Shown: positions 18,167 through 31,989 of the stretch, in pieces | Position numbering within the stretch: position 1 is the first letter of the stretch | Layout of the letters: each line of letters begins with the position of its first letter | Source of the DNA: Gemmata obscuriglobus | Lineage (GTDB): Bacteria; Planctomycetota; Planctomycetia; Gemmatales; Gemmataceae | Assembly (NCBI RefSeq): GCF_008065095.1 | Contig: NZ_CP042911.1 | Location: forward strand, 7,560,001-7,592,000 | DNA: 32,000 bases | Direction of reading: 5' to 3' | Notes under the pieces: generated by a model | Seen by the model: only the letters and a program-made list of their open reading frames with translations | Told to the model about the DNA's origin: nothing | The model's database searches: none | Program-made: the position numbers and the translations under genes

Positions 18167-19135
18167 TCAGGCGCCGAGGTAGTTGCTGACCAGCAGGTCC
18201 CCGTGCCCGCGGTAGACGTTGGTCTTGGTGCCGCCCGCGGTGCCGGCCTGGATCGTCTCCGAGGTGAACACCGCGCGGAACAGGTTCTCCAGCGACGGGT
18301 TCACGATGTACGTGATGGTGTCCGCGCTGAACGTGAGCTGCTCGTTCGGCCACCACTCGTCGTCGGCCGGGTCCGCCTTGTCCAGCTTGAACCCGCGGAA
18401 CGCGAGCTCGACCGCCTTGATGATCTCCTCCACCTCGTTCACCGTGGGCAGGTCGGTGACGGTCATCTTGACCGCGCTCCACCAGAACCCGAACGCCGCG
18501 GCGCCCTCGAAGTCGTACCAGAACTTGACCTGCTTCTCCTCCTTGGACTGCGGCGAGTTGCCGTTGTCCTCGAGCCCCTTGTCCTTGCGGTCCTGCCAGA
18601 TGATCGGCTTCAGGCCGGGCGTCTTGAGCAGCGCCACCACGGTGTTCGTGGACCCGTCGTTGGCCGCGCAGTCCTTGGTCAGGGCGTTGTTCCCGGACCC
18701 GATGTTGTGGCTGGTAGCGAAGAAGTTGGACCCGTCGAAGCACGGCCCGTTGTCCCGCAGCAGCTTGAGGCTCTCGCGGCCCGGGAAGTCGGCCACGTCG
18801 GCCGCCATCATCTGCATGCGGGTGCCGTACCCGCCGGTCTGGTCGTCCTCGATGTCGCGCAGCAGGACCGCCTCCTCCGCGCTGTACTCGAGGTTCTCGA
18901 CCTTGTACTTGCTCCAGTCGGGGCGGGTGTAGTTGCGCCTCCCGAGCCACCGCTTGAGCCGCGGGGGCGGGCTCATCCACGGGTACTGCTCGATGCGGGC
19001 GGTCGAGGCCACCCGCTGGACGAACGACGTCCACGGGGTGATCTTGATGCCCGCGCGCAGGGCCTCGTACGCCTGCAGGAACTCCGACCGCATGCTGGCG
19101 GTGAAGATCGTCACCTTGTCGTTGATGTTCGGCAC
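18167..19135 (-). CDS. Major capsid protein, Mu gpT-like (322 aa)
   Basis: The N-terminal pattern ...W..VA..V.S....E.Y.W...P.L..W.G.R....Y.V.N.....V...DIEDD..G.Y...M..M is the recognisable signature of Mu-like major head subunit gpT. The gene sits downstream of the protease/scaffold. Confidence 0.8.
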   Translation of the reverse strand: MPNINDKVTIFTASMRSEFLQAYEALRAGIKITPWTSFVQRVASTARIEQYPWMSPPPRLKRWLGRRNYTRPDWSKYKVENLEYSAEEAVLLRDIEDDQTGGYGTRMQMMAADVADFPGRESLKLLRDNGPCFDGSNFFATSHNIGSGNNALTKDCAANDGSTNTVVALLKTPGLKPIIWQDRKDKGLEDNGNSPQSKEEKQVKFWYDFEGAAAFGFWWSAVKMTVTDLPTVNEVEEIIKAVELAFRGFKLDKADPADDEWWPNEQLTFSADTITYIVNPSLENLFRAVFTSETIQAGTAGGTKTNVYRGHGDLLVSNYLGA

Positions 19136-19175: not shown

Positions 19176-19928
19176 TCAGGCGATGGTGACGCCGTTCGGA
19201 CCGCCGTCCGCGTACCAGTTCCCCTGGTACGCGACGACGCGGAAGCTGTTGCCGCGGGCGGCGCCGAACGTGGCGGTCCCGGTCGCGCCCTTGGCGTTGA
19301 ACCCGACGCCGGCGCAGGTGACGACGTGGGCGGCGGCGGTGGTGGACACCAGCTCGAGCACCTTGCCGTCGTCGGCGCCGGCGGCCGGGGCCGCGAGCGT
19401 GAGGGCGGCGGCGGTGCCCTTGGTGAGGAGCACGGTCCCGGCCTTGACCGGCACCGCGCCGTCGCCCGCGAGCACCAGGAGGGCGCTGTTGCCGCCCCCG
19501 CCGGCCTGGAAGTAGTGGGCCTCGACCACCACCGCGGTGGCGCTGAGCACCGCCGCGACGCGGCCGACGAAGTTGCCGAACGCGCCGGGGGCGAACGCGA
19601 CCGTCTGGTCGTCCACCGCGTACACCCGGCGGCCCACGTCGCCCGGGGCGGCCGCGGCGATCGCCACGGTGATGAACCGGGGCTGGTTCACGTCGAGCAG
19701 CACGTCCCCGTTGGCCCCGCCGGCGAGCACCTCGGTACTGGCCGACGCGAGCACCCCGTCGAACGTCTTGACGGCGGCGTCGTCCATCTTGTCCGCCCAG
19801 CCGGCGGCGGTGAGCCCGATCATCGCGTTCGGGAAGAACACCTGGGCGGTGCTGACCGCCCCGCGCTTGGTGATGTAGTCGCCGAACGGGGTGGTCCCCA
19901 CGTTGCCGCGCTTGATCGTGTTGGGCAT
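19176..19928 (-). CDS. Head decoration / cement-like protein candidate (250 aa)
   Basis: It lies between the scaffold and the major capsid. It is a Gly/Ala/Val/Thr-rich beta-type sequence with two similar halves. GAGGGA SD. The family is not confirmed. Confidence 0.5.
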   Translation of the reverse strand: MPNTIKRGNVGTTPFGDYITKRGAVSTAQVFFPNAMIGLTAAGWADKMDDAAVKTFDGVLASASTEVLAGGANGDVLLDVNQPRFITVAIAAAAPGDVGRRVYAVDDQTVAFAPGAFGNFVGRVAAVLSATAVVVEAHYFQAGGGGNSALLVLAGDGAVPVKAGTVLLTKGTAAALTLAAPAAGADDGKVLELVSTTAAAHVVTCAGVGFNAKGATGTATFGAARGNSFRVVAYQGNWYADGGPNGVTIA

Positions 19929-19998: not shown

Positions 19999-21726
19999 TC
20001 AGTGGACCATCGCGGCGGCGTCGGCGCCGATCAGCTTGGCGGCGGTGAACGCCGGGTCCCGCTCGGCCATGCTCTTGGCGGTCGCCACCAGCTTCTTCGG
20101 GTCGGTGCCGTGCTTGCGCAGGGCCTCGCCCTGCGCCTCGGCGAACCGCTCGACCTTGCGCACCTCTGCGGCCGCCCGGTCCTTGGCCTCGGCCGGGCCG
20201 GCGGCGAACCGCTCGCCGAACCGGACCGTCACCGGCATCTGCGCGAGCTGGGCCTTGCGGGCCTCGTAGGCGGTGAGGTTGCGGGTCCGGCCGTTCTCGG
20301 TGAACCGGTGGACGGCCCGGGTGTCGTCGAGCCCGAGCAGGAGCGGCAGGTACGCGGCCGTCACCTGGGCCGGGGTGGCCCGGCCCTCGGAGACGAGCTG
20401 GTCGCAGAACTTCGTCGCGTCGTCGCGCTTCCGCCGCTCGTTGCTGACGCGGAGCCGGCTCAGCTCGTTGTCCAACGCGGCGTTCAGCCGCTTCGCCTTG
20501 ATCGCGAGTTCGCTGTTCACGGTGACGCCCCTGCGGGTGGCGGGTTTGGGCCTGGGTTTGCGCCGCGGCTCGCTCATCGGGACGGCCGCCGGGGCCGGCG
20601 CGGGGGCCGCGGGCGGTGCGGCCGGGTCGGCGGTGAGCTGGGCGTACAGGGCGCGGAGCTGGTCGTCGGGCATGGCGTCGAGCGCGGCCGCGTCCTGGCC
20701 CTGCGCCACCAGGTCCGCGATCATCTCCTCGCGGGTCACGGCCGCCGGGTCCGCCATCGTCTCGACCGGTTCCTCGCCCTCGCCCTCGGTGCCCTCGGTC
20801 TCGGTCCCCTCGCCGATCACTTCCTCGTACAGGGCGCCGAGCTCCTCGTCGCTCATCCCCTCGAGCTCGGCCGCGTCCTCCCCCTCGTCCACCAGGGCGG
20901 CGATCATCTCCTCGCGCGACGGCTCGGCGAACATTCCGGTGGCCGGCGCGGGGGCGGGGTTCGGCGCCGGGGTCGGCGTCGCGGCCCCGGTGGGGAGGTT
21001 CTTGACCAGGTCCGCGAGGGCCTCGTCGGTCATCGCGTCGAGGGTGGACTGGCTGATCCCGGGCATGGCCGCCTGGATCGCGGCGATCATCGACTGGCGG
21101 TCCATTCTGCTCGTCTCCGCGAAGGTGATCAGGGCGCCGCGGCGGCCCCGGACGGTGTGCTCCCGGATCCGCACCCCGGCGCGCTCGCCGAACCGCAGCG
21201 GCGCGGGCATCGGCTCGGGCTTCGGCAGCGGCCCCAGGCGCTTCACCTGGGGCACCTCGCCGCCGAGGTAGCTGAACTTGCGCAGCACCTTGCCGTGCGT
21301 GTTCCCGAAGTCGTCGAGGAACGAGTCGTAGATCTCGGCCGAGCCGTACCGGTACTCGCCGCTCTCGATCTTCCGGGCCATCGCCTCGGGCACGTTGACC
21401 ACGTTCCCCTTGAGGATCACGTGCCCCGCGTGCTGCGGGTCGGGGACGGCCCGCAGGCTGTTCGGGTCGACCCACCCGGCCGCGGGCTCGTCGGTCGGCA
21501 CGAACTCGCGCCACCCCTCGTCGTCCTCGTGCCCGGGGGCCGCCGGCGGGGTGTGCAGCTTCGCGCCGCCCGGGCCGAGCTTGCGCCCGGCCTCGGCCAT
21601 GTTCCGCACCCAGTGCGGGAACCAGCGCCGGCCGCGGTACACCCCCGACGCGAACAGGTTCACGTCGCGGAGCATGTAGTAGCGGGGCTGGGTCGCGGTG
21701 CGGGGCTGGGTGGCGGCGCCGGGCAT
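19999..21726 (-). CDS. Prohead protease/scaffold, Mu gpI-like (575 aa)
   Basis: The N-terminal AAGWVDP...GHVILKGNVVNVPEAMARKIESGEYRYGSAEIY resembles the aaGWi...v.wT..A...i..geYrY.Sp.f signature of Mu-like prophage protein I. The C-terminal half is acidic and helical, as in scaffolds. I chose ATG 21726 because the upstream part of track ORF 19999..22206 is antisense to the TIGR03067-like gene. Confidence 0.6.
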   Translation of the reverse strand: MPGAATQPRTATQPRYYMLRDVNLFASGVYRGRRWFPHWVRNMAEAGRKLGPGGAKLHTPPAAPGHEDDEGWREFVPTDEPAAGWVDPNSLRAVPDPQHAGHVILKGNVVNVPEAMARKIESGEYRYGSAEIYDSFLDDFGNTHGKVLRKFSYLGGEVPQVKRLGPLPKPEPMPAPLRFGERAGVRIREHTVRGRRGALITFAETSRMDRQSMIAAIQAAMPGISQSTLDAMTDEALADLVKNLPTGAATPTPAPNPAPAPATGMFAEPSREEMIAALVDEGEDAAELEGMSDEELGALYEEVIGEGTETEGTEGEGEEPVETMADPAAVTREEMIADLVAQGQDAAALDAMPDDQLRALYAQLTADPAAPPAAPAPAPAAVPMSEPRRKPRPKPATRRGVTVNSELAIKAKRLNAALDNELSRLRVSNERRKRDDATKFCDQLVSEGRATPAQVTAAYLPLLLGLDDTRAVHRFTENGRTRNLTAYEARKAQLAQMPVTVRFGERFAAGPAEAKDRAAAEVRKVERFAEAQGEALRKHGTDPKKLVATAKSMAERDPAFTAAKLIGADAAAMVH

Positions 21727-21732
21727 GCCCCC

Positions 21733-21762
21733 ACTGTGCGCGGGAGGGTTGCCCGGATGAAA
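21733..21762 (-). promoter_or_regulatory. Late promoter-like motif S3 (TTTCAT-N18-CACAGT)
   Basis: The minus strand reads TTTCAT CCGGGCAACCCTCCCGCG CACAGT, then 6 nt, then ATG 21726. Confidence 0.5.
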
Positions 21763-21895
21763 GAAGACCAAAAAAGAGTTGGGCCGCACCAATCGGTGCG
21801 GCAACGCGTCGGCTCTCATCACTCCTTCGTTTGCTCTAACTAAATCGCCATTGCGTCCTCGGACCCGAAGCACCACCCACCACGTGAGGGCTCTG

Positions 21896-22330
21896 ATGAA
21901 CCGGCTTTGTTTCTGCGTGCTCGCGGCGCTCTTCACCACCTGCGTTTCCTTGGGCGAAGAGCAGCCGAAGGCCGTGAAGGACGAACTCAAATTGCTGGAA
22001 GGTGAGTGGAAGGTCGTCAAAGCCGAGAGCGGCGGAAAGGCGGTCAAATCGAAGTCGGTTGTCGTGTACACCGCGGACGGGAAGTCCTCCATTTCGGACC
22101 CCAACTCGGGGCTGCCGCCGCTGAAGACAACGATCGCGCTCGACCCAACGAAGAAGCCGAAATGGATCGACGTGACGAACGCCCGGGGCCGCACCGATAA
22201 GGGCATTTATGAGTTGAACGGCGATCAGATGAAGGCCGTGTTCCGTGCCGGCGGGGACCGACCGACGGAGTTCAAAACGGAAGCCGAGGGCGAGGTGATG
22301 TACACTTACGAGCGGGTCAAACCCAAGTGA
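21896..22330 (+). CDS. Secreted TIGR03067-family (Planctomycetes-type) protein (144 aa), low-GC cargo gene
   Basis: Signal peptide MNRLCFCVLAALFTTCVSLG. LEGEWKVVKAESGGK...IALDPTKKPKWIDVT...GIYELNGDQMKAVF...RPTEFKTE...YERVK matches the TIGR03067 pattern (LqGtWkvvs.e..Gk...y.ldp.kkPk.iD....G...GIYkldgD.L.l......RPteF). The gene is on the opposite strand to the late genes. Confidence 0.75.
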   Translation: MNRLCFCVLAALFTTCVSLGEEQPKAVKDELKLLEGEWKVVKAESGGKAVKSKSVVVYTADGKSSISDPNSGLPPLKTTIALDPTKKPKWIDVTNARGRTDKGIYELNGDQMKAVFRAGGDRPTEFKTEAEGEVMYTYERVKPK

Positions 22331-22427
22331 GGGTCGTACCGAGTCAAACGGCGGTCTCGACCTCAAGGGCGACCGCACCTCGACAGCTGTCGTCGCGATG
22401 CGACTAACCGCGGCGCCGACCGTGAGA

Positions 22428-23480
22428 TCAGCCCGCCAGCGCCCGGCACAGCGCCCGCACGCCTGCCAAGCGCCCGCGCAGTTCCGCGACCACGGCCCGT
22501 TCGCTCATGTGGGCCGTGCGGCCCTTCTGCCGCGCGCCCGGGTCGAGCAGGTCGAGCGTCTCGCCCACCCAGGCCTTGAGCTTCTTCACCGCGTCCTGGG
22601 TCGAGTCCGGGGCCTCGCCCGTCACCTCGCGCGCCAGCGGGGCCAGCTTCCGCGGGAACTTCCGCGCGTAATCGTCGATCTGCTTTTCCGCGGCTTTCAG
22701 GGCCGCCCGGGCCGCGGTGGTCTCGTAGTTCCACCCCAGCGCGCGGCCGGTGGTGATCCCGGCGTCCACGCTCTTCTTCAGCGCGGGCAGATTCGGGCTG
22801 CCGTCGGCCCGGGGCGGGACCGCGGGCGCCCCCGTCGCGGTCGCGGCCGCTTTCACCTTCGCGGCCGCGGCGCCGGCGCGGTTGGCGGCCGGCCCCTTGG
22901 GCGCCGGTCCGGTGCGAGGCGGTTGGCGCACCACCGCGTGCGGGTCCGCGACCTTCTTCTTCGGGTCGAACTCCGGCGCCGCCGTCGGCGACTTCGGTTT
23001 CGCCGGCGGGGCGGGTTTCGGTTTGGGCGGGGGTGCGGGCGCCGGTACCTCCTTCGGGACCGCGGGCAGGCTCGCGACCGGGAGCGTGGGCGACGGCTTC
23101 GGCCCGGCCTTCAGTTCCGCCTCGGCGGCCTCGGCGCGCTTGCGGAGCGGCTCGAGCTCGGCGGCCGGGAGCTTCGCCCGGACCGCGGCGTCGTGCGAGT
23201 CGCGCGCGACCTTGGCCTTCATCGTCAGGATGCGCTCCTGCTCGCCAGGTTTGGGACCGCCCTTCCCGGCCGCGGGCGCCTTCGGCCCCGTCGCCGCGGG
23301 CCGCTTCTCGCCTTTCTTGCGGCCCTTCAGCTTCTGGAACACCGCCAGCGTGAGCGTGCGCTTCCCACTGGGCGAGACCATGCGGTCGCCCTTCTGCTGC
23401 CAGTCGTCGAACCCGGCGAACGCGTCCCACACGCCCGCGGCGCAGGCCCGGAGCGCGAGCAGGTCGGTCAGGTCAGGCAC
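22428..23480 (-). CDS. Basic Ala/Pro/Lys-rich virion-module protein with an N-terminal W-x2-W...SGKR module (350 aa)
   Basis: The N-terminus FAGFDDWQQKGDRMVSPSGKRTLTLAVFQKL is paralogous to two segments of the giant ORF. The middle has histone-H1-like PKPKPAPPAKPK tracts. The GTG start overlaps the upstream stop (GTGCCTGA). Confidence 0.6.
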   Translation of the reverse strand: MPDLTDLLALRACAAGVWDAFAGFDDWQQKGDRMVSPSGKRTLTLAVFQKLKGRKKGEKRPAATGPKAPAAGKGGPKPGEQERILTMKAKVARDSHDAAVRAKLPAAELEPLRKRAEAAEAELKAGPKPSPTLPVASLPAVPKEVPAPAPPPKPKPAPPAKPKSPTAAPEFDPKKKVADPHAVVRQPPRTGPAPKGPAANRAGAAAAKVKAAATATGAPAVPPRADGSPNLPALKKSVDAGITTGRALGWNYETTAARAALKAAEKQIDDYARKFPRKLAPLAREVTGEAPDSTQDAVKKLKAWVGETLDLLDPGARQKGRTAHMSERAVVAELRGRLAGVRALCRALAG

Positions 23481-24513
23481 GGCACACCCTCCGCGAAGCG
23501 CCCACCAGGTCCCGGACCGGTTCGGCCATCCGGGCGAGGGCCGCGGCCCGCTCCCGCGTGTCGTCGTCCTGGGCGGCCAGTGCGAGGGCGGCCAGGATGG
23601 TCTCGTCGTCGATCGGGATGTCCGACGGCTTGCCCTGGCGCGCGAGCAGGGCGCGGATCCGGGCCTTGATGAGCGGCACCGGGTCGAGGTCCGCCGGCGG
23701 GGCTTCGGCGAACCCGGCCGGTTTCCCCCGTTTGGTGGGTCGCTTGGCCGCCTTGAGGATCTTCTTGCCGCCCCAGGCCCCGAGCTTCCCGCCGAGCCCG
23801 CCCCCGAGGGCGGTGCCGAGCGCGAGCCCGAGCGGGCCGCCCAGGGCGGTGCCGGCGATCGCGCCCCACGCCATCCCGTTCAGCCCGGCGAGGATCCCGA
23901 CCGCCCCGGCCGTGGCCTTCTTCAGGAAGTCGGCCACCTTCGCGCCGAACCGCTGCCGGTCCCGGCCGTGCTGGGCGGTGATGTACGCGCTCTCCGCGGG
24001 CGTCGGGTCCGGCAGCTTCTGGCTGCCGGGCAACGGCGGGGCCTTCACGGGCGGCCTGATGGGGCGGGTGTAGTCGACGTCCGCGGCGTACGGCCCGAGC
24101 CTCTGGCCGCCCGCCCGGACCCGGTCGTACGCGGCCCGGTTCGCCGCGGCGGACGGGTCCCCGGACCGCGTTTTCTTCTTCCTCTTCGCGGGGGCGGCGA
24201 TGGCCCGGGGGCCGGCGGCCGCGCCGCCCGCGGCCGGCGCCGCCCAGGCGGCCGTTCCCGTGGGCCAGCCGGCGGGCGCGGGCTCGGAGGCGGAAGGCTT
24301 CGGCGCCGCGCCCTGTGGCGCCGGGGCCTTTTTCGCGGCCCCCTTCGCGGCGCGGTTGCCGACCCGCTGTTGGTGCCGCTGGTAGGCGTCGTTCGACAGC
24401 ACCCGGCCGCCGGCCGAGCGCCACTTGCCGCCGTCGATCTGCTGCCACTCCACCGCGAAGCAGTGGACGAGCAGGTGCGCGGCGCGGAGCAGCGGGTATG
24501 CGGTGCGGCTCAT
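23473..24513 (-). CDS. Basic protein with a glycine-zipper hydrophobic segment and a degenerate copy of the W-x2-W module (346 aa)
   Basis: I prefer ATG 24513 to the track TTG at 24522, which falls inside the -10-like hexamer of S4. The protein contains HCFAVEWQQIDGGKWRSAGGRVLSNDAYQRH and GAVGILAGLNGMAWGAIAGTALGGPLGLALGTALGGGLGG. Confidence 0.55.
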   Translation of the reverse strand: MSRTAYPLLRAAHLLVHCFAVEWQQIDGGKWRSAGGRVLSNDAYQRHQQRVGNRAAKGAAKKAPAPQGAAPKPSASEPAPAGWPTGTAAWAAPAAGGAAAGPRAIAAPAKRKKKTRSGDPSAAANRAAYDRVRAGGQRLGPYAADVDYTRPIRPPVKAPPLPGSQKLPDPTPAESAYITAQHGRDRQRFGAKVADFLKKATAGAVGILAGLNGMAWGAIAGTALGGPLGLALGTALGGGLGGKLGAWGGKKILKAAKRPTKRGKPAGFAEAPPADLDPVPLIKARIRALLARQGKPSDIPIDDETILAALALAAQDDDTRERAAALARMAEPVRDLVGASRRVCRA

Positions 24514-24520
24514 GGCACCC

Positions 24521-24550
24521 AAGTTAACGGGCCGGGTTGCCCGGATACCG
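24521..24550 (-). promoter_or_regulatory. Late promoter-like motif S4 (CGGTAT-N18-TAACTT; diverged hexamers, conserved spacer core)
   Basis: The minus strand reads CGGTAT CCGGGCAACCCGGCCCGT TAACTT, then 7 nt, then ATG 24513. Confidence 0.4.
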
Positions 24551-24696
24551 AGCTAGTTTGCGGCAGACATCGCACCTTGGCGCACCTTATACTGCGCTGG
24601 TCTAATCCTTTGCTTTTGACTGCCGCGTGTACTCACGGTGCCTAACCCATTGCGCGACCGCACCACCGCGCGAACCACCACTGCAAAGCAGAGGCT

Positions 24697-25872
24697 ATGT
24701 CAGAAAAAGTCAAAATACTCTTCCTAGCAGCAAATCCGTCGGACCTGACACAGTTGCAGCTGGACGAAGAAATTAGAGCAATTCAGGGCAAAATCCGATC
24801 TGCTGACTTCAGCAGTAACTTCGACCTTGTCTCACGCTGGGGGGTGCGGCCCAGCGACTTGATTCAGGCTTTTAACGAAGTACGCCCTCACATAGTCCAT
24901 TTCAGCGGGCACGGTAGCCGTACTGCTGAACTTGCCCTCAAGAGCGATGATGGGACGACTAAGCCTGTAACTGCCGCAGCACTTGTGAGTCTTTTCAGAA
25001 GCGCGGGTAGCAGTGTACAACTGGTCGTCCTCAACGCCTGCCACTCCGACGCGCAAGCACACGCCCTAAGTCGAGAAGTCGAATGCACCATTGGAATGAA
25101 CGCCGAAATTGGGGACAATGCAGCGATAGCATTCGCTTCACGCTTTTATGGCTCTCTGGCATTTGGCCTTTCCGTCGGGCAAGCTTTCGAGCAGGGCAAA
25201 ACGGAACTGATGCTAGAAGGAATTCCCGAGGAGGATACGCCTGTTCTCCTATGCCGCCCTGACGCAACTCCTCACACGATTGCTTTCGTCAACCGAGTTC
25301 CGGTTAATCCGCTGCTACCGCCTTTGGCCTGGGAGATTCTTCAGCATGCGATAGACGGCAATGGCCCAGTCCAATTGAGCGAGTACGATGGTGGCGTTGT
25401 GGCCATGGCAGCTGGGACGCCGTTTGATAGCGGTTTCGACACCCAACAAGCCGCGCTGATCCGCGACTCGATCCGTCTCCTCTTGCAATGCCGCTGGCTT
25501 GAACGATCCGATCGCGAGCTTTTGCATGTTACGGCAGAGGGCTTCGAGGCGATTCGTAAACGCGCAGGTGCCCAAAGCCCAAGCTTCCTCAAAATCAAAG
25601 AGCAGATGCCCGCGCTTTTTGCAGAGATGAAGAAAGACCTGGAGAGCAAAGAAGGCAAGTTCGTGCGAGAGTTTTTCGTCATGAGCCGCCGCCACGCCCT
25701 CGGCGGCTCAGATAAGCCTCGATTTGTCTACTACGAAGAGGATCATTCCAACCTCCGCGGCCAGATTGACATCTTGGAAAACCAAGGCTACCTGACCGAC
25801 GTGACCCCGAAAAATGTACCTATTTACCGCATGAGCGAAGAGCTTGTGAGGCTGGTACTTAAATTTGGATAA
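24697..25872 (+). CDS. Minimal CHAT (caspase-like His-Cys) protease domain fused to an uncharacterised, possibly winged-helix-like, C-terminal half (391 aa); low-GC cargo gene
   Basis: The N-terminal 190 aa follow the CHAT pattern KILFLAANP.D...L.LDEEIR.I......FDLVSRWGVRPSDL...F....PHIVHFSGHG....L.L......LVVLNACHS.AQA......V.C.IGM...IGD.AAI.FA..FY..L..G.S...AF. The predicted dyad is His72 (CAC 24910-24912) and Cys115 (TGC 25039-25041). GC is about 50% against about 70% in the flanks. AGAGG SD. Confidence 0.8.
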   Translation: MSEKVKILFLAANPSDLTQLQLDEEIRAIQGKIRSADFSSNFDLVSRWGVRPSDLIQAFNEVRPHIVHFSGHGSRTAELALKSDDGTTKPVTAAALVSLFRSAGSSVQLVVLNACHSDAQAHALSREVECTIGMNAEIGDNAAIAFASRFYGSLAFGLSVGQAFEQGKTELMLEGIPEEDTPVLLCRPDATPHTIAFVNRVPVNPLLPPLAWEILQHAIDGNGPVQLSEYDGGVVAMAAGTPFDSGFDTQQAALIRDSIRLLLQCRWLERSDRELLHVTAEGFEAIRKRAGAQSPSFLKIKEQMPALFAEMKKDLESKEGKFVREFFVMSRRHALGGSDKPRFVYYEEDHSNLRGQIDILENQGYLTDVTPKNVPIYRMSEELVRLVLKFG

Positions 25873-25877
25873 GTCGC

Positions 25878-26894
25878 TTACCAGCTCCTTTCCACGCGGA
25901 CCACGCCCATCAGGTGCTTGCTAACCGGGGCGAAGCTGCACCGGCAGTTCCACACCCGCGAGCCGCGCACCTCGGCGAACGGGACACTCGACGGGAAGTA
26001 CTTGCCGATCTTGGGGCGGTGGTCGTCGCCGGTCCGGTCGTCGAGGACCCCCAAGTACTCCCAGGCCGGGAACCGCTCCCGCATGTCCGGGTCCGCGATC
26101 TCGTCCTGGGCGCCCTGGTTGTACGCGTCGAGCACGTTGGTCCGCACCACCATGTCCGCGTACTGCGGGTTCGCCACCGACACGCCGGCGTCGTCGAGGA
26201 CCTGCTCGACGTCCGGCACCGCGCTGGCGCCCGTTTGCAGCTGCTTCAGGATCGCCGCCTTGACCTTCTCCAGCACCGTCTGATCGCTGGCCACCGCGAG
26301 CGTGAACGCGTGCCGGTCGAGCTTGGCGCCGTACCGCGCCGTCCCCCCGCCCAGCGTCGGCACGAGGCGGCGGAAGTACTCGAGCGCGGTCGTGGGCTCC
26401 AGCACCGGGACCGCGTCGGTGAAGTCGTGGAACGGGTCGTCGGTGCCGGCGTCCGCGAACGCCACCCGCTCGGCCATCTCGGCCCGCCGGCGGATCCGCG
26501 CGCGGCCCATCAGGTCGGCGCTGGCCACGCACCGCGCCAGGGCCTCGGCGATCTGCCCCAGCTCGGCGTCGTCGAACAGCACCGGCGCCCCGAGCGGGTC
26601 CCCGGAGGTGAGCAGCCGCCGCACCGCCGACTCGCTGGCCGTGGCGAACACCTCGGCCCCGTCGGCCCGGGCGCGGGCCAGGAGCTGCGCGGCGCGGGCG
26701 CCGTCCGGTCCGGCCGGGGCGAACGCGTCCCCCTCCGCGAACCGCGCGAGCGGCGCGGGCTCAGTCAAAAAGCCCCGGACCTCGCTTCGCCACGACCGGA
26801 GCTGCTCCGGGGTCGTTGCCGGATAGCACGTTTCGCACTGCGGCGAGGGTCTTGGCCCGGAGCTGGGAGCGCCCGGCGTTGGTGGCGTCGGCAT
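25878..26894 (-). CDS. Head morphogenesis protein, Mu F / SPP1 gp7 family (338 aa from ATG 26894; start uncertain)
   Basis: The C-terminal VVRTNVLDAYNQG...FPAWEYLGVLDDRTGDDHRPKIGKYFP...VWNCRCSFAPV is the characteristic MuF/gp7 signature. ATG 26894 would overlap the giant ORF by 134 nt. An alternative TTG at 26768 would overlap by 8 nt. Confidence 0.75.
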   Translation of the reverse strand: MPTPPTPGAPSSGPRPSPQCETCYPATTPEQLRSWRSEVRGFLTEPAPLARFAEGDAFAPAGPDGARAAQLLARARADGAEVFATASESAVRRLLTSGDPLGAPVLFDDAELGQIAEALARCVASADLMGRARIRRRAEMAERVAFADAGTDDPFHDFTDAVPVLEPTTALEYFRRLVPTLGGGTARYGAKLDRHAFTLAVASDQTVLEKVKAAILKQLQTGASAVPDVEQVLDDAGVSVANPQYADMVVRTNVLDAYNQGAQDEIADPDMRERFPAWEYLGVLDDRTGDDHRPKIGKYFPSSVPFAEVRGSRVWNCRCSFAPVSKHLMGVVRVERSW

Positions 26895-29800
26895 AGTGCA
26901 CCGCGTACTCGTTCAGGAGGTCGGAGAGCGGCCCCTTGAGCCGGGCGCCGCGGTCGAAGTCGTCGAGGGCCGCGTCCGCCTTGTCGGCGATCGTGCGGTT
27001 CTGCTCGGTGGCGAGCCGGTTGCCGGCCACCGACTCGAGGGCCTGGGCGCGGCGCACGCTGGCCCCGAGGCGGAAGTCCTTGGCCTCCTTCGCCAGCTCG
27101 GCCCGCACGTACGCCTTGAGCTCGGCCCGGTGGAAGTAGACGCTCTCGTCCTGCTCGATCGGGCCGAACAGCGACTCCTGCGTGCGGCTCACCTTCGGGG
27201 CGTCGCGCATCTCCTGGGCCATCGCCTCGACCACCCGCGGGCCGGCCGCCCGCCCGGTCCGCTCCTCCTGCTTGACCAGCGCCGACAGGAGCCGCTGCTG
27301 GTCCAGGTGGTCGTCCAGGTGCCGGGCCACCGCGGCCGCCCGGTCCGGGTCGAGGGACCCGTGGGCCACCTGGCGGAACAGATCCGGGGCGAGCTTCACC
27401 AGGTCGGCGGCGTCGCGCGCCACCTGCCCCTTGAGCGAGATCCCGGCGGCCGCGAGGTCCGCGGCCGAGCGCCCCGTGTCGCGCAGGAACTTGGCCGCGT
27501 CCACCGCGGTGCCCCGGCCCTCGGCGATGTTGATCAGCGCCCCCTTGGCCCGGGCCTCCGCGGCGGTCCGGGCGGTCACGTACCGGACGCTCACGTCGCG
27601 GGCGCCGGTGCGGTTCGCGAGGTCGAGCCGGTGGTGCCCGTTCACCACGTACGTCTTCCCGTCGGCCGGGTCCTTCCAGACCGCCAGCACGCCCGCCAGC
27701 TCCGGGTCGAACGTGGTCACGTGCGCGAGCTCGGCGCCGACGCCCCGGGCGTTGGTGTTCAGCTTGAACTGGAACCGGCCCGGGTCCACCGCCACCCGGC
27801 CGGGCGCGACCTGGTACACCCGCCCGGGCTGCGGGCTCGCCGGCGGCGCGAACGGCGACCGGCCCGGTGCCCCCGCCGCGACGGCCCCCGGAGCCGGGGT
27901 GCCGCCGCGGCGCGCGCTGAGCTTCTGGAACGCGTCCAGGGTCAGGGACCGCTTCCCGCTCGGCGACACCATCCGGTCGCCCTGCCGGGTCCACTCGTGC
28001 CACGCGAACGCGTGCACCCGCTCGGAGTGGGGCACCACCTCGTCGTTCCCGGTGGCCCGCATCCCGGCGTCGGCGGCCTTGCGCCCGATCTTGCGGCCCA
28101 GGTACACGGTGCCCGCGACCGCCGCGGGGGCGGCGAGGAACCCGGCCAGCGGCGGGATCAGCCCGGCCCCGGCGGCCAGCACCGGCGCGGCCATCACGGC
28201 GGCCCCGCCCACCAGCGCCGCGCCCCACCACAGGAACGGCCGGGCCGCCCGCCCGAGGCGCGAGTTCGCCAGCCATTTGGCCGCGCCCCAGCCGGCCCGG
28301 ACCGCCTTCGGGGTGAGGCGCAGGGTTTCGCGGGCGAGCGCCAGCAGCCCCTGGCCCGTGCCGACGGCGGTGGACACGGCGGCGTCGGCCGCGTGCCCGG
28401 CCAGGGTGCGGGGCACGGCCAGCGCGGCCCGGCCCGCCGCGGTCACCGCCCCGGCGGCCCCGGAGATCAGGTTCGAGGCGGTCTGCCGGTCGTGGGCGCC
28501 GGCGCGAACGACGTCGCCCACCACCTCGCCGGCCAGCCGCCGGACGGTCCGGGGGGCCTTGACCGCCGCCCGCACCAGCCCGCCGGCGAACCGCCCCAGC
28601 GCCCCGACCACCAGCTTCGCCCCGCCGGCGGGCAGCTTGGCCAAATACCCGCCGAGCTTGAGCGCGAGGTCGCCGGCCGCGTCCACGTCCCGGCCGAGCG
28701 TGTCCTCCAGGAGGTTGCCCACTTCTTTGCGCTGGCCCTTGGGCATGCCCCGGGCGGCGTCGAGCCACGTGGAGCGGATGACCGGCCGCACCACCTCCGG
28801 GAGCGGCCCGAGCTTCTTCAACTCGGCCGCGGCGTGCGTCACCGCCTGCTTCCCGGCGTCGGCCACCTTCGCGGCCGCGGCGGGGTCGCTCCCCGCCCGG
28901 GCGGCGGCCGGGGCGAGTTCGGCGGCCTGCGCGGTGACGGCCTTGCGGATCCGGGTCCGGTTGATCTTCACGAGCCGCGGCGTGCGGGGGTCGGGCGGGC
29001 CGTCCTGGGCGTCCCGGCGGGCCTGCTGCGCGACCACCTCGCGCGCCCGCTCCGGGCTCACGCCCCGCTCGACCGTGCGCTTCACCCCGCCGCGCGGGCC
29101 GACGGTCTCGAACGTCAGGGTCCGCGGGGCCGTGGCCCGGCGGCCCACGCCGGCCTGGCGCTCGAGCGCGGCCCGGGCCCTGTCCCCATAAAGAACCTGC
29201 CCCTGATGCTCCGCGGTACCGACGGCCTTCACGCCCCCGGACCGGGTCCGCGCCGGCTGCCACCCGAACACGTCCCACGCCAGCCCGAGGCCTTCCGCCC
29301 GGTCGGCGAACGATTCGGCCTGCGCGGGCGCGTCCTCGTCGAGCGCCGCGGCGGTCGCCTCGTCCAGGTACTCGAGCAGGTCCGCCAGCAGCGCCGCGAG
29401 CTGCTCGTCGGTCAGGTCGATCGGGTGCCCGAGGGCGCGCTCCGCCTGCTCGCGGAACGCGACCACGAACCCGAGCGGGTCGTCGCCCGCGGCCTCGGCG
29501 AAGAACTTCCGCTGCGACGCCTGCCCCGGGCCGCGGTAGAAGTCCCGCCCGCCGGCCCGGTTGTTCGCGTTGCGGGCGGCGCCCACGGCCGCGCTCGGCC
29601 CCGCCACCATCCCCGCCCGGGCGGCCTTCAACTTGGCCCGGGCCTCCGCGCGGGCCACCGCCTTCGGCCCGCGGGTCTTGAGCAGGAGCGCGCGCTTCGC
29701 ACGGCTCAGGAGCCCGCCGCTGTTGGTGCCGAGCTCCTGGGCGCGGCGGGCCTCCATCGCCGCGTCCGCTTTGCGCACCGCGGTGCCGGCCCCGCGCGTC

Positions 29801-31989
29801 CCGCGGAGGTTGTTCCAGCGGCCGTAGAACGGCGCCTGGACGGCCTTGCGGATGAGCCCGGACACGGCCCCGGACAGGTACGTTTTCGCCCCGGCCCCGA
29901 GCAGCGCGGTCGCGGTCAGGCCCTTGCCCGCGGCGGTGCCGATGGCCAGCCCCGCGACGCCCGGCGCCCCGGCCAGCCCGGCCAGGGCCAGCGCCCCGCC
30001 GACGGCCGCGGTGCCGAGGGTGAACGACAGGGCCAGGGTGCCGGCCTCCATCACCAGCGCCTTGCCCAGCCCGTGGATCTTGTAGTTGCGGTAGAAGTCC
30101 GGGGCCGCGGCCTTGAGCACCCGCTTGACCGCCTTCCGGGTGGCCGCGCCCTTCTGCCCGCGGATCATGGCCTGGATGGCGATCGAGCGGGCCTCGTCCT
30201 TGAGGGCCTTGCCGAACCGCTCGAGGGGCGCGCCGACGGAGTCGAGCAGCGGCACCCGGCGGATCGCCTGCCCCAGCTTCTCGGCGGCCCACCCCGCGCC
30301 CTGGACCGTGGACGAGCCGCCGGCCAGCCCGAGCGCGGCCGCGTCCCCGGCCCGCCGGGCGGCGGCCTTCGCGCCCCGCCCCGCCGCGGCCGCGGCCCGC
30401 CGGGCGGCGAGCGTGCCCCGCGCGGTCTTCGGCGCGGGGGCAGCAGGGGCGGGAGCAGCGGGCGCGGCCGGTGCGGTCGGGGGGTTCGGCGGTTTCGGCG
30501 CGGCCGGGGGCTTCGGCGCGGCGGGCGCCGGGGGCGGTGCGGGCGCCCGCACCGGGGCCGCCGGGCCGGCGGCGCGGGCCTTGGGCAGGGCGCCGCCCGC
30601 GCGGGTCCGGGAGCTGAGCCGCTGGAACGACTCGAGTGTGAGCGACCGCTTCCCGCTGGCGCTCACCATGCGCGGGCCGGCGGGCGTGTTGGTCTGCTTC
30701 CAGTCGTCCCACCCGAACACGTGCACCCGCTGTTCCGCGAACGGCACCGCCGCGCCACCGCCGGCGGACGGGTCGCCGGGCGGGAGCAGCGCGGGGTCGC
30801 CCATTGATGGATCGGGCGGGAATTCGCCACCCATCCCCATGCCGCCCATGCCCATGCCGCCCATCGGGTCGGCGCTTGGGCCGGGCAGCTGGAGGGCGTC
30901 GTCGGGGTCGTTCGGGTCCGCGAGCTGGAGGCTGAACGCCTTCGCGTAGTGCTTCTTGGACAGCGCGTTCGGGCCGGTGAACCCGATCGCCTGCGCCCCC
31001 TGCACCACCTGGAGCAGCTCGAGCAGCTCCTGGTTGCTGGCGGCCCCGAACGTGAGCTTGGGGTACGCCCCGCCGGCCGGGTACGGGTAGTTGAAGTCGA
31101 CGAACTTGGGGGCCAGCTGCTTGTTGACCGCGTCCGTCACCAGCGCCATCAGGAGCCACGGCACCAGGTCGGCGATCGACTTCTGGACCTTCGAGTCCCC
31201 GCGCAGCTCGGGGGCGGCGCTCACCAGGCTCTGGAGCGTGGCGAACGTGATCCCGCTGACCACCTCGTCCCGCTTGCTCTCGGCGAAGCTCTTGTAGTCC
31301 GGCTCCGAGGCGGCCGACAGGTTGATCGCCTCGATCCGCACCCCCTCGGGCACGGCGATCCAGGTGGCGCTCTTGGCCTTCCGCAGCGCGTCCTCCAGGG
31401 CCGGCTTGTCGTCGTCGCTCTGGTACGTGCCCATGAGCATGCCGGCCATGCGCTTCTCGTGGTGGATCACGCGGAGCTTGTCCACCGTGTCCAGCATCCA
31501 CCACGCGCCGTACGCCGGGCGGTACGCGGCGAGCCCGAGCGGCTCGTCGAACACCGTCATGTACCGGCTGAACACGAAGTCCTCAATGGGGTACGCGGGC
31601 TGCTCCGGCGCGCGCCGGGCCTGCACCCACTTGACGTTGCCGAAGGGGTCCCCGCCCAGCCGCACGTCGCCGCACGTGTCGTCGGTGTCCTTGGCCGACA
31701 GCTTGGTGCAGACGATGTGCTTCGCGAGCTTCCCCTGCCGGCCGGGGTTCCAGACGGGCTCGGCGAGCGAGTGCCCCTCGCTCCCGAGCGGGGCGCAGAC
31801 GGCCCGCACGACCGAGATGATGCCGCCCGCCAGGTAGTCCTCGATCATCGCCTTGAACGCGTCCGCCTGCTCCTCGCTCTCCGGGTTCCCCGGCTCCGAC
31901 GCCTGCACCTGCCAGTCCTCGGCCGCGACCGTCAGGATCGCCGGCTCCCAGGCCGTCGCGACCCACGGGCTGCGGCGCATGAGCCGCAT
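26761..31989 (-). CDS. Giant fusion ORF (at least 1742 aa): portal-like N-terminus, two [W-x2-W...SGKR module / low-complexity / hydrophobic] segments, ParB-like domain, helical C-terminus
   Basis: A single open frame. Residues 1 to about 370 look like a phage portal (probably the Mu gp29/DUF935 type, by context). A GGMGMGGMGMGG linker follows. Module copies are at aa 421-460 and 1323-1360. Gly/Ala hydrophobic stretches are at aa 641-715 and 1251-1297. The ParB-like NGHHRLDLA segment is at about aa 1391-1500. The frame stays open to the window edge, so the true start may lie upstream. The other long ORFs over this span are Arg/Gly/Pro-rich out-of-frame artefacts. Confidence 0.7.
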   Translation of the reverse strand: MRLMRRSPWVATAWEPAILTVAAEDWQVQASEPGNPESEEQADAFKAMIEDYLAGGIISVVRAVCAPLGSEGHSLAEPVWNPGRQGKLAKHIVCTKLSAKDTDDTCGDVRLGGDPFGNVKWVQARRAPEQPAYPIEDFVFSRYMTVFDEPLGLAAYRPAYGAWWMLDTVDKLRVIHHEKRMAGMLMGTYQSDDDKPALEDALRKAKSATWIAVPEGVRIEAINLSAASEPDYKSFAESKRDEVVSGITFATLQSLVSAAPELRGDSKVQKSIADLVPWLLMALVTDAVNKQLAPKFVDFNYPYPAGGAYPKLTFGAASNQELLELLQVVQGAQAIGFTGPNALSKKHYAKAFSLQLADPNDPDDALQLPGPSADPMGGMGMGGMGMGGEFPPDPSMGDPALLPPGDPSAGGGAAVPFAEQRVHVFGWDDWKQTNTPAGPRMVSASGKRSLTLESFQRLSSRTRAGGALPKARAAGPAAPVRAPAPPPAPAAPKPPAAPKPPNPPTAPAAPAAPAPAAPAPKTARGTLAARRAAAAAGRGAKAAARRAGDAAALGLAGGSSTVQGAGWAAEKLGQAIRRVPLLDSVGAPLERFGKALKDEARSIAIQAMIRGQKGAATRKAVKRVLKAAAPDFYRNYKIHGLGKALVMEAGTLALSFTLGTAAVGGALALAGLAGAPGVAGLAIGTAAGKGLTATALLGAGAKTYLSGAVSGLIRKAVQAPFYGRWNNLRGTRGAGTAVRKADAAMEARRAQELGTNSGGLLSRAKRALLLKTRGPKAVARAEARAKLKAARAGMVAGPSAAVGAARNANNRAGGRDFYRGPGQASQRKFFAEAAGDDPLGFVVAFREQAERALGHPIDLTDEQLAALLADLLEYLDEATAAALDEDAPAQAESFADRAEGLGLAWDVFGWQPARTRSGGVKAVGTAEHQGQVLYGDRARAALERQAGVGRRATAPRTLTFETVGPRGGVKRTVERGVSPERAREVVAQQARRDAQDGPPDPRTPRLVKINRTRIRKAVTAQAAELAPAAARAGSDPAAAAKVADAGKQAVTHAAAELKKLGPLPEVVRPVIRSTWLDAARGMPKGQRKEVGNLLEDTLGRDVDAAGDLALKLGGYLAKLPAGGAKLVVGALGRFAGGLVRAAVKAPRTVRRLAGEVVGDVVRAGAHDRQTASNLISGAAGAVTAAGRAALAVPRTLAGHAADAAVSTAVGTGQGLLALARETLRLTPKAVRAGWGAAKWLANSRLGRAARPFLWWGAALVGGAAVMAAPVLAAGAGLIPPLAGFLAAPAAVAGTVYLGRKIGRKAADAGMRATGNDEVVPHSERVHAFAWHEWTRQGDRMVSPSGKRSLTLDAFQKLSARRGGTPAPGAVAAGAPGRSPFAPPASPQPGRVYQVAPGRVAVDPGRFQFKLNTNARGVGAELAHVTTFDPELAGVLAVWKDPADGKTYVVNGHHRLDLANRTGARDVSVRYVTARTAAEARAKGALINIAEGRGTAVDAAKFLRDTGRSAADLAAAGISLKGQVARDAADLVKLAPDLFRQVAHGSLDPDRAAAVARHLDDHLDQQRLLSALVKQEERTGRAAGPRVVEAMAQEMRDAPKVSRTQESLFGPIEQDESVYFHRAELKAYVRAELAKEAKDFRLGASVRRAQALESVAGNRLATEQNRTIADKADAALDDFDRGARLKGPLSDLLNEYAVHYADATNAGRSQLRAKTLAAVRNVLSGNDPGAAPVVAKRGPGLFD
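27490..27819 (-). other. ParB/Srx-fold (ParB-like nuclease / NTP-binding) domain inside the giant ORF
   Basis: YQVAPGRVAVDPGRFQFKLN...LAGVLAVWKDPADGKTYVVNGHHRLDLANRTGARDVSVRYV has the strand - G-H/R-x-R - helix arrangement typical of ParB N-terminal-like domains. Confidence 0.6.

Follow-up and report, generated by a model that had tools for sequence, protein, structure and literature searches.

To our knowledge, the way in which tailed phages choose proteins for packaging and injection is understood only for a few models, such as T4 with its capsid-targeting sequence (CTS) and P1 with the signal of DarB, and in these the choice is made through short idiosyncratic peptides. The CTS, known from the T4 internal proteins IPI-III and Alt in work of Mullaney and Black that PMC5694885 and PMC9024508 describe, brings internal proteins into the head (PMC5694885), and 30 residues at the N-terminus of P1 DarB are enough for capsid targeting (PMC9024508). 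By analogy, these two are the functionally nearest systems to the element described here, a protein module that recurs four times in three head genes within a stretch of 32,000 nucleotides of Gemmata obscuriglobus (contig NZ_CP042911.1, positions 7,560,001 to 7,592,000; hereafter the window). The window has 73% GC, and its minus strand carries the Mu-like head-and-tail module of a prophage. An initial annotation had read the module either as a tag for targeting to capsid or portal or as a unit recognised by a protease, on proteins of the head interior. This proposal stands in part: the restriction to Mu-like head modules, the position, the payload classes and an F-[ASG]-[ED] motif favour it on comparative grounds, but the candidate cleavage site lies upstream of the module. 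We give a probability of about 0.5 to the reading that the module forms the N-terminal head in a cargo cassette and docks proteins into the procapsid, in a clade of Mu-like siphophages and prophages.

The repeated module and its family

Translation reproduces the four copies at the coordinates reported in the initial annotation, two of them with a difference of 1-2 flanking residues, and all lie in minus-strand head genes. The reading frames of the three module-bearing open reading frames (ORFs) are supported as real because their GC content at third codon positions (GC3) is 0.93-0.97, versus 0.57-0.62 in the overlapping frames. A six-frame scan of the window with the family hidden Markov model (HMM) revealed no copy of the module, hereafter type 1, beyond these four. 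The carriers and copies are as follows:

26761..31989, minus strand: giant ORF, a 1742-residue portal polyprotein with GC3 0.97 over the whole ORF; order Portal_Mu, Gly-rich linker, module A, segment 1, type-2 head, segment 2, module B, ParB-like domain
23473..24522, minus strand: putative cargo gene D, ~346 residues from an ATG at 24513; order N-terminal module D, Ala/Pro/Lys linker, glycine-zipper hydrophobic stretch, acidic C-terminal helix
22428..23480, minus strand: putative cargo gene C, 350 residues, its start overlapping the gene D stop by 8 nucleotides; order N-terminal module C, Lys/Pro/Ala-rich linker, C-terminal part with no assigned fold
30592..30762, minus strand: type-1 copy A (HMM envelope; core 30610-30729), giant ORF, 66.4 bits with the family HMM
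27898..28029, minus strand: type-1 copy B, giant ORF, 57.8 bits, heading the ParB-like payload
23304..23438, minus strand: type-1 copy C, N-terminus of gene C, 60.0 bits
24349..24483, minus strand: type-1 copy D, N-terminus of gene D, 65.4 bits

A degenerate DNA pattern for RMVS[PA]SGKR matched the window 3 times, against 0.00 expected from 100 shuffles, and BLASTP among copies A, B and C gave E values of 1e-8 to 1e-11, with the likeness restricted to the module. Segment 1 of the giant ORF was considered as a paralogue of the gene-D protein and rejected, the BLASTP likeness between them lying in the module only. Copy D had been regarded as degenerate, a description we do not uphold: its GGKW(K/R)S(P/A)GGRVLS..YQR pattern is the commonest variant of the family, and its score is on a par with those of the other copies. 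The related claim that the copies had diverged mostly at synonymous positions holds only in part: third positions account for 10 of the 13 nucleotide differences between B and C, but for only 9 of the 17 between A and B. Copies B and C agree in 18 of 21 residues, and 8 of these 18 are encoded by different codons; because identical residues often use different codons, the repeat is kept at the protein level and does not reflect a recent DNA duplication.

The conserved unit comprises ~45-55 residues. An HMM built from the four copies found the module in most of the ~30 homologues of the giant ORF, portal polyproteins of 1000-2100 residues, and an exhaustive HMMER search of 1.84 billion representative proteins with a 29-sequence family alignment (A2) returned only 76 carriers at E <= 1e-3. 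The wider consensus is F-x-W-x-D-W-x-Q-x2-G-G-K-W-K-S-P-G-G-R-V-L-S-D-x2-Y-Q-R-L, with F, W, S, G, R and L as the invariant or nearly invariant residues, and copies A-C, with their RMVSPSGKRxLTL form, represent a subfamily that occurs in other phages too. Two carriers are named, both from Gemmata, and the other sampled loci have ~70% GC. An exact back-translated scan for M-V-S-[PA]-S-G-K-R-[ST]-L-T-L gave 0 matches in viral_contigs and 0 in metagenome_contigs; its single match in genome_contigs, in a Bacteroidetes metagenome-assembled genome, was set aside as chance, having an upstream stop codon and no flanking motif. This Gemmata-specific variant of the motif is too narrow a probe. Word-index searches with the alignment of the four window copies (A1) and with the type-2 alignment (A4) found nothing, and a portal-domain search of viral_contigs for related loci found none. 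Among cultured phages, the 350-residue gene C protein had no tblastn match, the giant ORF matched only through its ParB-like end, and no INPHARED phage resembled this head module.

Structure prediction points to a folded mini-domain: AlphaFold2 (AF2), run on copy B with the 29-sequence alignment, returned three short strands and a C-terminal helix (beta-beta-beta-alpha) with a predicted local distance difference test score (pLDDT) of 82.6. The initial annotation could not assign the module to a known domain, and this still holds after searches of Pfam, NCBIfam, PHROG, PDB and BFVD, in none of which did it match a domain already described with some unrelated function. No Pfam model, including those of the LPD families, covers the module region, and Foldseek with the type-1 and type-2 models found nothing at E < 0.1 in PDB and BFVD. 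On these comparisons, the domain family appears to be undescribed so far. The sole lead is DUF3653, a Pfam 'Phage protein' family without known function, to which 5 of the 29 module sequences gave weak matches over F-x-W...G..VSP.G (best E = 0.022). All these matches fall below the gathering score (copy B, 15.2 bits and E = 0.024, against a cut-off of 22.4), and a relationship with the module is no more than possible.

Two other resemblances were considered and dropped. The best Foldseek matches of the type-2 model are WW domains, at E >= 1.5 and a TM-score of ~0.35, and the top matches of type 1 include none. One search hit, P0105, scored E = 1e-4 through six weak repeats, apparently ChW repeats judging from the repeat sequence YGWQDWKRNGEMSGTSGKAKRLEGIEI, and it has the pattern W-x-D-W...G...S-G-K..R-L in common with the RMVSPSGKR subfamily; Pfam ChW matched no module sequence, and the likeness of P0105 may be convergence or very remote homology.

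A second kind of head, overlooked in the initial annotation, lies between the two type-1 copies of the giant ORF:

29131..29298, minus strand: type-2 head, giant ORF residues 899-945, core AWDVFGWQPARTRSGGVKAVGTAEHQGQVLYGDRARAALERQ, 77.4 bits with the type-2 HMM

Heads of this kind follow the consensus F-[AS]-E...W-E-x-F-A-W-x2-A-R-[ST]-R-x-G-G-[VI]-K-A-V-G-T-G-E-x2-G-x2-L-Y-G-x2-A-x2-A-L. Among the ~110 proteins collected, portals that lack a type-1 module behind the portal domain carry a type-2 head there, and in one related locus (L007) a type-2 head also stands at the N-terminus of a free cargo gene. AF2 predicts for type 2 the same beta-beta-beta-alpha order as for type 1. We do not treat the two as clear homologues, given that hhalign aligned only the F-[AS]-E...F-x-W part (17 columns, probability 36%), and the common order of secondary structure leaves homology possible.

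The strength of conservation bears on a reading in which the module does no docking at all and is either a compact spacer spread by repeated cassette duplication or a small autoproteolytic element. Cassettes do shift between fused and free forms, the module with ParB being fused in the window and standalone in P0057, P0081 and P0084, and one Ser and one Arg of the module are nearly invariant. Nevertheless, the module is strongly conserved over ~76 clusters (<=50% identity) while its surroundings diverge, the codon differences described above separate identical residues within the window, type-2 heads lack the invariant Ser of type 1, and N-terminal copies have nothing to self-cleave. We give such an inert or self-processing linker very little credence.

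Carriers, payloads and a candidate cleavage motif

All 7 related contexts examined belong to the same head module (L002-L004, L007, L008, the window and the P0003 contig, the context of the last being read from its gene table). On the minus strand of the window the order is giant ORF, MuF, gene D, gene C, protease-scaffold, a 250-residue structural gene (19176-19928), a gpT-type head gene, and then the genes for a neck protein and for a tail tube of siphovirus type. The portal domain and the two other genes that frame the module carriers are:

30934..31983, minus strand: Portal_Mu domain, giant ORF residues 3-352 (Pfam PF06074, E = 6e-29)
25878..26894, minus strand: MuF / SPP1 gp7-like minor head protein (PF04233, E = 1e-8; TIGR01641)
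19999..21678, minus strand: prohead protease-scaffold, 559 residues from MLRDVNLF (phrog_976 'head maturation protease', E = 1e-20)

Taking type 1 and type 2 together, 44 of 136 heads lie within the first 80 residues of their protein and the rest are inside polyproteins. The standalone carriers are ~40 proteins of 78-2347 residues with the module at the extreme N-terminus (first ~70 residues), and two of the four window copies, C and D, likewise open their own protein. In the polyproteins, the first copy directly follows the portal domain and a Gly-rich linker, and a type-1 or type-2(-like) head stands behind the portal domain in 30 of 30 portal homologues (P0001-P0030). In L002, L003, L004 and L007, all heads lie either in the portal polyprotein or in genes that separate portal/MuF from protease-scaffold, the same slot that genes C and D occupy in the window.

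This positional rule bears on the possibility that the module acts after injection, binding a host component (a conserved protein, the envelope or the nucleoid) and thereby localising an effector. A host-specific adaptor would be expected to show the distribution seen here, in which the family is confined to one host-related phage group of ~70% GC with Gemmata-like relatives, and the module would stay on the mature cargo if cleavage occurs upstream of it. On the other hand, the universal post-portal copy and the copies before MuF are in structural-assembly contexts, and beyond the non-significant WW-like Foldseek matches the module has no likeness to known binding domains. We consider a host-directed function very unlikely.

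The region after the module also has a characteristic composition. Across the family, the 60 residues that follow it contain 12.9% Pro (versus 7.0%) and 16.7% hydrophobic residues (versus 25.5%), and the first 25 have a mean net charge of +1.6, compared with +0.6 in background windows. The initial annotation had described the same architecture behind each copy, a basic low-complexity region and then a Gly/Ala hydrophobic stretch. This describes A and D well (an Ala/Pro/Lys linker, then a Gly/Ala glycine-zipper stretch) and C partly, but not B, after which a short Pro/Ala linker leads into a ParB-like domain:

26833..27879, minus strand: ParB/Srx-like payload, giant ORF residues 1371-1719, motif VVNGHHRL (phrog_21, E = 1e-93, model positions 1001-1346)

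The homologue P0001 is named 'ParB/Sulfiredoxin domain-containing' in its UniRef source; Pfam, PDB-sequence and NCBIfam searches gave no significant match to the ParB-like domain or the other segments. Homologues of this domain with 31-49% identity, all annotated 'hypothetical', occur in the Prochlorococcus podophages P-SCSP1, Ruegeria phage 45A6, an uncultured Mediterranean phage and Dunaliella viridis virus SI2. Judging from these matches, it is a widespread phage domain that Pfam ParBc misses.

The payloads found behind the module are diverse. P0052 (2347 residues) and P0054 (2306 residues) carry it at residues 11-61, followed by a methylase region, which matches phage proteins annotated 'DarB-like antirestriction', and by AAA_34/Helicase_C_4; P0054 is located between portal and protease-scaffold in L002. 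The giant ORF joins Portal_Mu to the ParB-like domain, to which its relatives add MuF, AAA_34/Helicase_C_4, LPD1/5 and ADP-ribosyltransferase (ART). Across the family we also found SNF2/ResIII, LPD1 and LPD5, ART, MuF and glycine-zipper payloads. The gene D product gave weak matches to tape-measure and P22 gp7-like models.

These linkers and payloads could also belong to an ejection or DNA-association leader, in which module and basic Pro/Ala/Lys linker would bind packaged DNA or the portal/tail channel and thread cargo out at infection, with no role in loading. The post-module stretch is indeed basic and Pro-rich, and in composition it resembles T4's basic internal proteins; several of the payloads belong to the glycine-zipper or P22 gp7-like proteins of ejection type; and the module would remain on mature cargo cut at an upstream F-x-E. 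Such a leader leaves unexplained, however, how standalone cargo enters the procapsid. In addition, structure searches with the module detected no nucleic-acid-binding fold, and the portal-proximal copy, present in 30/30 portal homologues, has no obvious role in ejection. We therefore regard this explanation as unlikely.

The last line of evidence concerns a short motif, F-[ASG]-[ED], which precedes the heads inside polyproteins. It was found within ~20 residues upstream of 64 of the 92 internal heads (70%), the corresponding figures being 10 of 44 for N-terminal heads and 7.8% for background windows; family alignments showed no conserved motif after the module helix. In the giant ORF, the acidic motifs before the three heads are:

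30733-30741, minus strand: P-F-A-E, upstream of the copy A core
29302-29310, minus strand: F-A-D, before the type-2 head
28021-28029, minus strand: H-S-E, before copy B

The same motif is enriched ~8-fold in the protease-scaffold. That of the window contains five instances, all F-[AG]-E and at columns conserved in relatives, against 0.63 expected, and none of 2000 shuffles reached five. Five homologues show the same pattern, and the six proteins contain 5, 6, 4, 6, 6 and 4 instances at conserved alignment columns, against ~0.65-0.75 by shuffling (P <= 0.0045). The prohead proteases of T4, phiKZ and SPN3US all cut after Glu, and scaffolds are typically cleaved at several sites (PMC5694885). In Mu, the virion structure lacks the C-terminal 124 residues of the portal, an absence that its authors read as a sign of possible cleavage by protease I (PMC11915804). 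From the enrichment, and in the light of these precedents, we infer that F-[ASG]-E is the prohead-protease site of this clade.

With such a site next to it, the mini-domain might serve as an exosite that presents the adjacent F-[ASG]-[ED] to the prohead protease and so marks a cut point, without any targeting. This would fit the presence of the motif before 70% of internal heads, its enrichment in the protease-scaffold and the fact that types 1 and 2 detectably share only F-[AS]-E...F-x-W. Yet ~40 of the 44 N-terminal heads belong to standalone proteins with nothing upstream to remove, the motif preceding only 10 of the 44, and the F-x-E sites of the scaffold have no adjacent module, so the protease would not need an exosite. 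A pure processing-junction element thus seems quite unlikely to us.

As a separate observation, residues ~255-345 of the protease-scaffold comprise two tandem acidic repeats of ~45 residues, REEMIAALV…EL..MSDEELGALYEE and TREEMIADLVAQGQDAAALDAMPDDQLRALYAQ, which are kept in 4 of 4 aligned relatives. An acidic motif stands closely before each, F-A-E before the first and M-A-D-P before the second.

Proposed cargo docking and the rest of the head module

In the reading that we prefer, a procapsid cargo cassette would consist of an optional F-x-E junction, the mini-domain, a Pro/Ala-rich and mildly basic flexible linker, and a payload. Cassettes would be encoded either as separate genes, in the slot between portal/MuF and protease-scaffold, or strung on the C-terminus of the portal, which faces the procapsid interior. 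The mini-domain would dock on a component of the assembling procapsid core, and free cargo would thereby be co-assembled into the head; our first guess for the docking partner is the protease-scaffold, which is the most likely candidate, with portal or MuF as alternatives. The portal-proximal copy may likewise couple the portal to the scaffold. This coupling would echo the Trp-dependent portal-scaffold contacts of P22 and HSV-1 (PMC9320234), as an analogy only. The prohead protease would then cut at F-[ASG]-[ED], both in the polyprotein, where the motif stands 3-12 residues upstream of an internal module, and in the scaffold, which has it at several conserved places. This cut would free the portal from its ~1300-residue extension, and the cargo fragments would stay in the head, each retaining its module, and exit with the DNA at infection. 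Candidate roles for the cargo are those of anti-restriction or anti-defence enzymes (ParB-like, DarB-like, SNF2, ART) and of membrane-active glycine-zipper proteins.

Several points weigh against this cargo-docking reading. Its main weakness is that a loading tag seems redundant on portal-fused cassettes, yet those copies are conserved, and a second role, such as scaffold coupling or retention, is therefore needed. A cleavage upstream would also leave the module on its cargo, unlike the T4 CTS, and the module is a predicted folded domain where known capsid-targeting signals are short peptides. The F-x-E pattern is not present in gp29, gp30 and gpI of phage Mu, and for this reason the proposed cleavage specificity draws on enrichment statistics only. 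Finally, payloads are called injected effectors by homology to annotated classes only.

A fuller and more tentative version, which we would sooner doubt than accept, is that the module and type 2 together form a modular cargo-loading system. A docking domain displayed 12-fold by the portal and borne by every cargo protein would nucleate a scaffold/cargo core, and a Glu-specific protease cutting at F-x-E would dismantle the scaffold and turn the 190-kDa portal polyprotein into a bare portal plus stoichiometric injected anti-defence effectors. If true, this system would parallel, in a phage, the cargo-loading peptides of encapsulins, a new effector could join it simply by being placed behind the domain, in cis or in trans, and the domain would be a portable tag for engineered protein delivery.

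The giant ORF matches GobsT_37570 of G. obscuriglobus with 97% identity, and the first ~210 residues of the gene C product are identical to those of the cluster representative P0072, also of 350 residues (GobsT_63720); G. obscuriglobus therefore carries two related prophages. The homologue of gene D is GobsT_37600/63730, annotated 'hypothetical protein', as are the G. obscuriglobus versions of all these head genes. The start of MuF is probably the TTG at 26768, overlapping the giant-ORF stop by 8 nucleotides, as judged from the sequence and from the same 8-nucleotide overlap between portal and MuF in a related contig. Start and stop codons thus overlap by 8 nucleotides at both junctions (GTG 23480 with the stop at 23473-23475, and the probable TTG 26768 with TGA 26761-26763), a sign that translation may be coupled along the head operon. 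The protease-scaffold probably starts with MLRDVNLF at 21678, and the mechanical ORF 19999-22206 would thus open with ~176 codons that are not coding. An Rfam scan of 21600-26000 found nothing. Two further genes of the window and one ORF of lower GC3 are:

18167-19135, minus strand: gpT-type major head gene
24697-25872, plus strand: gene with a CHAT (caspase-like protease) domain, placed between MuF and the two putative cargo genes
21779-22330, plus strand: ORF with GC3 0.78 and a signal-peptide-like start, MNRLCFCVLAALFTTCVSLG

The GC content at the CHAT gene is markedly low (~56% in 25001-26000; GC3 0.57 versus >0.93 in phage genes), HNH or small reversed genes take its position in related phages, and it looks like an inserted moron. 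The ORF at 21779-22330 lies in the 750-bp gap between gene C and the protease-scaffold (21679-22427), where GC falls to 62%, and possibly encodes a moron product that is a secreted protein or lipoprotein. In related phages, a protein of the Acb2/Tad1-hairpin family, an anti-CBASS/anti-Thoeris sponge fold, is encoded just upstream of the portal (L002 782-1135, and the P0003 contig), and the same phages have N6/N4 and D12 methyltransferases; by these annotations they appear to carry many anti-defence genes.

Comparison with known systems

The T4 CTS and the module are alike in being N-terminal elements common to otherwise unrelated head-internal injected proteins, or predicted ones here, and in their association with a prohead protease that cuts after Glu; the module also stands, as the CTS does, at the N-terminus of proteins encoded among the head genes. 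The two differ in nature and in processing. The CTS is an unstructured propeptide of 10-20 residues that is cut off on its C-terminal side, whereas the module has 45-55 residues, a predicted fold and a candidate site on its N-terminal side. Compared by description, the module, unlike the CTS, also recurs inside the portal polyprotein.

The P1 Dar system combines DarB-like methylase-helicases and a ParB-like (DdrB-type) protein, encoded beside portal and protease, with an N-terminal packaging signal (PMC9024508), and P0052 and P0054 carry the module in the corresponding place, at the N-terminus of a DarB-like methylase-helicase. The tblastn matches of P0054 at E <= 1e-5 did not include P1. In P1 itself the signal sits within 30 residues and is not known to recur across the Dar proteins, and the portal has no fused cargo, whereas here one domain family heads all cargo.

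Iyer et al. (2017) predicted packaging and injection for the same payload classes, with no mention of Gemmata or planctomycetes, and described polyvalent proteins as giant multi-domain proteins joining portal or MuF to DdrB-type ParB, SNF2/methylase, ART and LPD domains (PMC5512222). By their domain content the module carriers are polyvalent proteins in this sense, a label that fits the carriers and not the module. What differs is that a recurring adaptor, which is not an LPD or other Pfam domain, punctuates the polyprotein here and also heads free cargo genes. Mu gp29 resembles the giant ORF in its Portal_Mu family, in gene order and in the probable removal of its C-terminus by gpI during head assembly (PMC11915804), but its tail of 124 residues has no module and neither gp29 nor gpI contains F-x-E.

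A likeness by description can also be drawn to encapsulins, where one portable tag loads diverse cargo into an HK97-fold shell. Encapsulin cargo-loading peptides are short and C-terminal, and bind the shell interior of a non-viral compartment.

In the phages studied here, one recognisable folded domain, as predicted, would mark the cargo of a whole clade, in free genes and portal polyprotein alike. Its HMM could list from sequence the injected-protein repertoire of these phages (ParB-like, DarB-like, ART, membrane-active), and the domain is a candidate portable tag for loading proteins into capsids. The analysis further yields a concrete prediction of cleavage specificity for a Mu-family prohead protease, F-[ASG]-E, a hint at how portal-effector fusions ('polyvalent proteins') may arise and be resolved, and annotation for several 'hypothetical proteins' of G. 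obscuriglobus, a model planctomycete. Cargo-loading and capsid-targeting elements are known as a class; what appears to be new, on the comparisons made above, is a folded element of this kind built on an apparently undescribed domain family.

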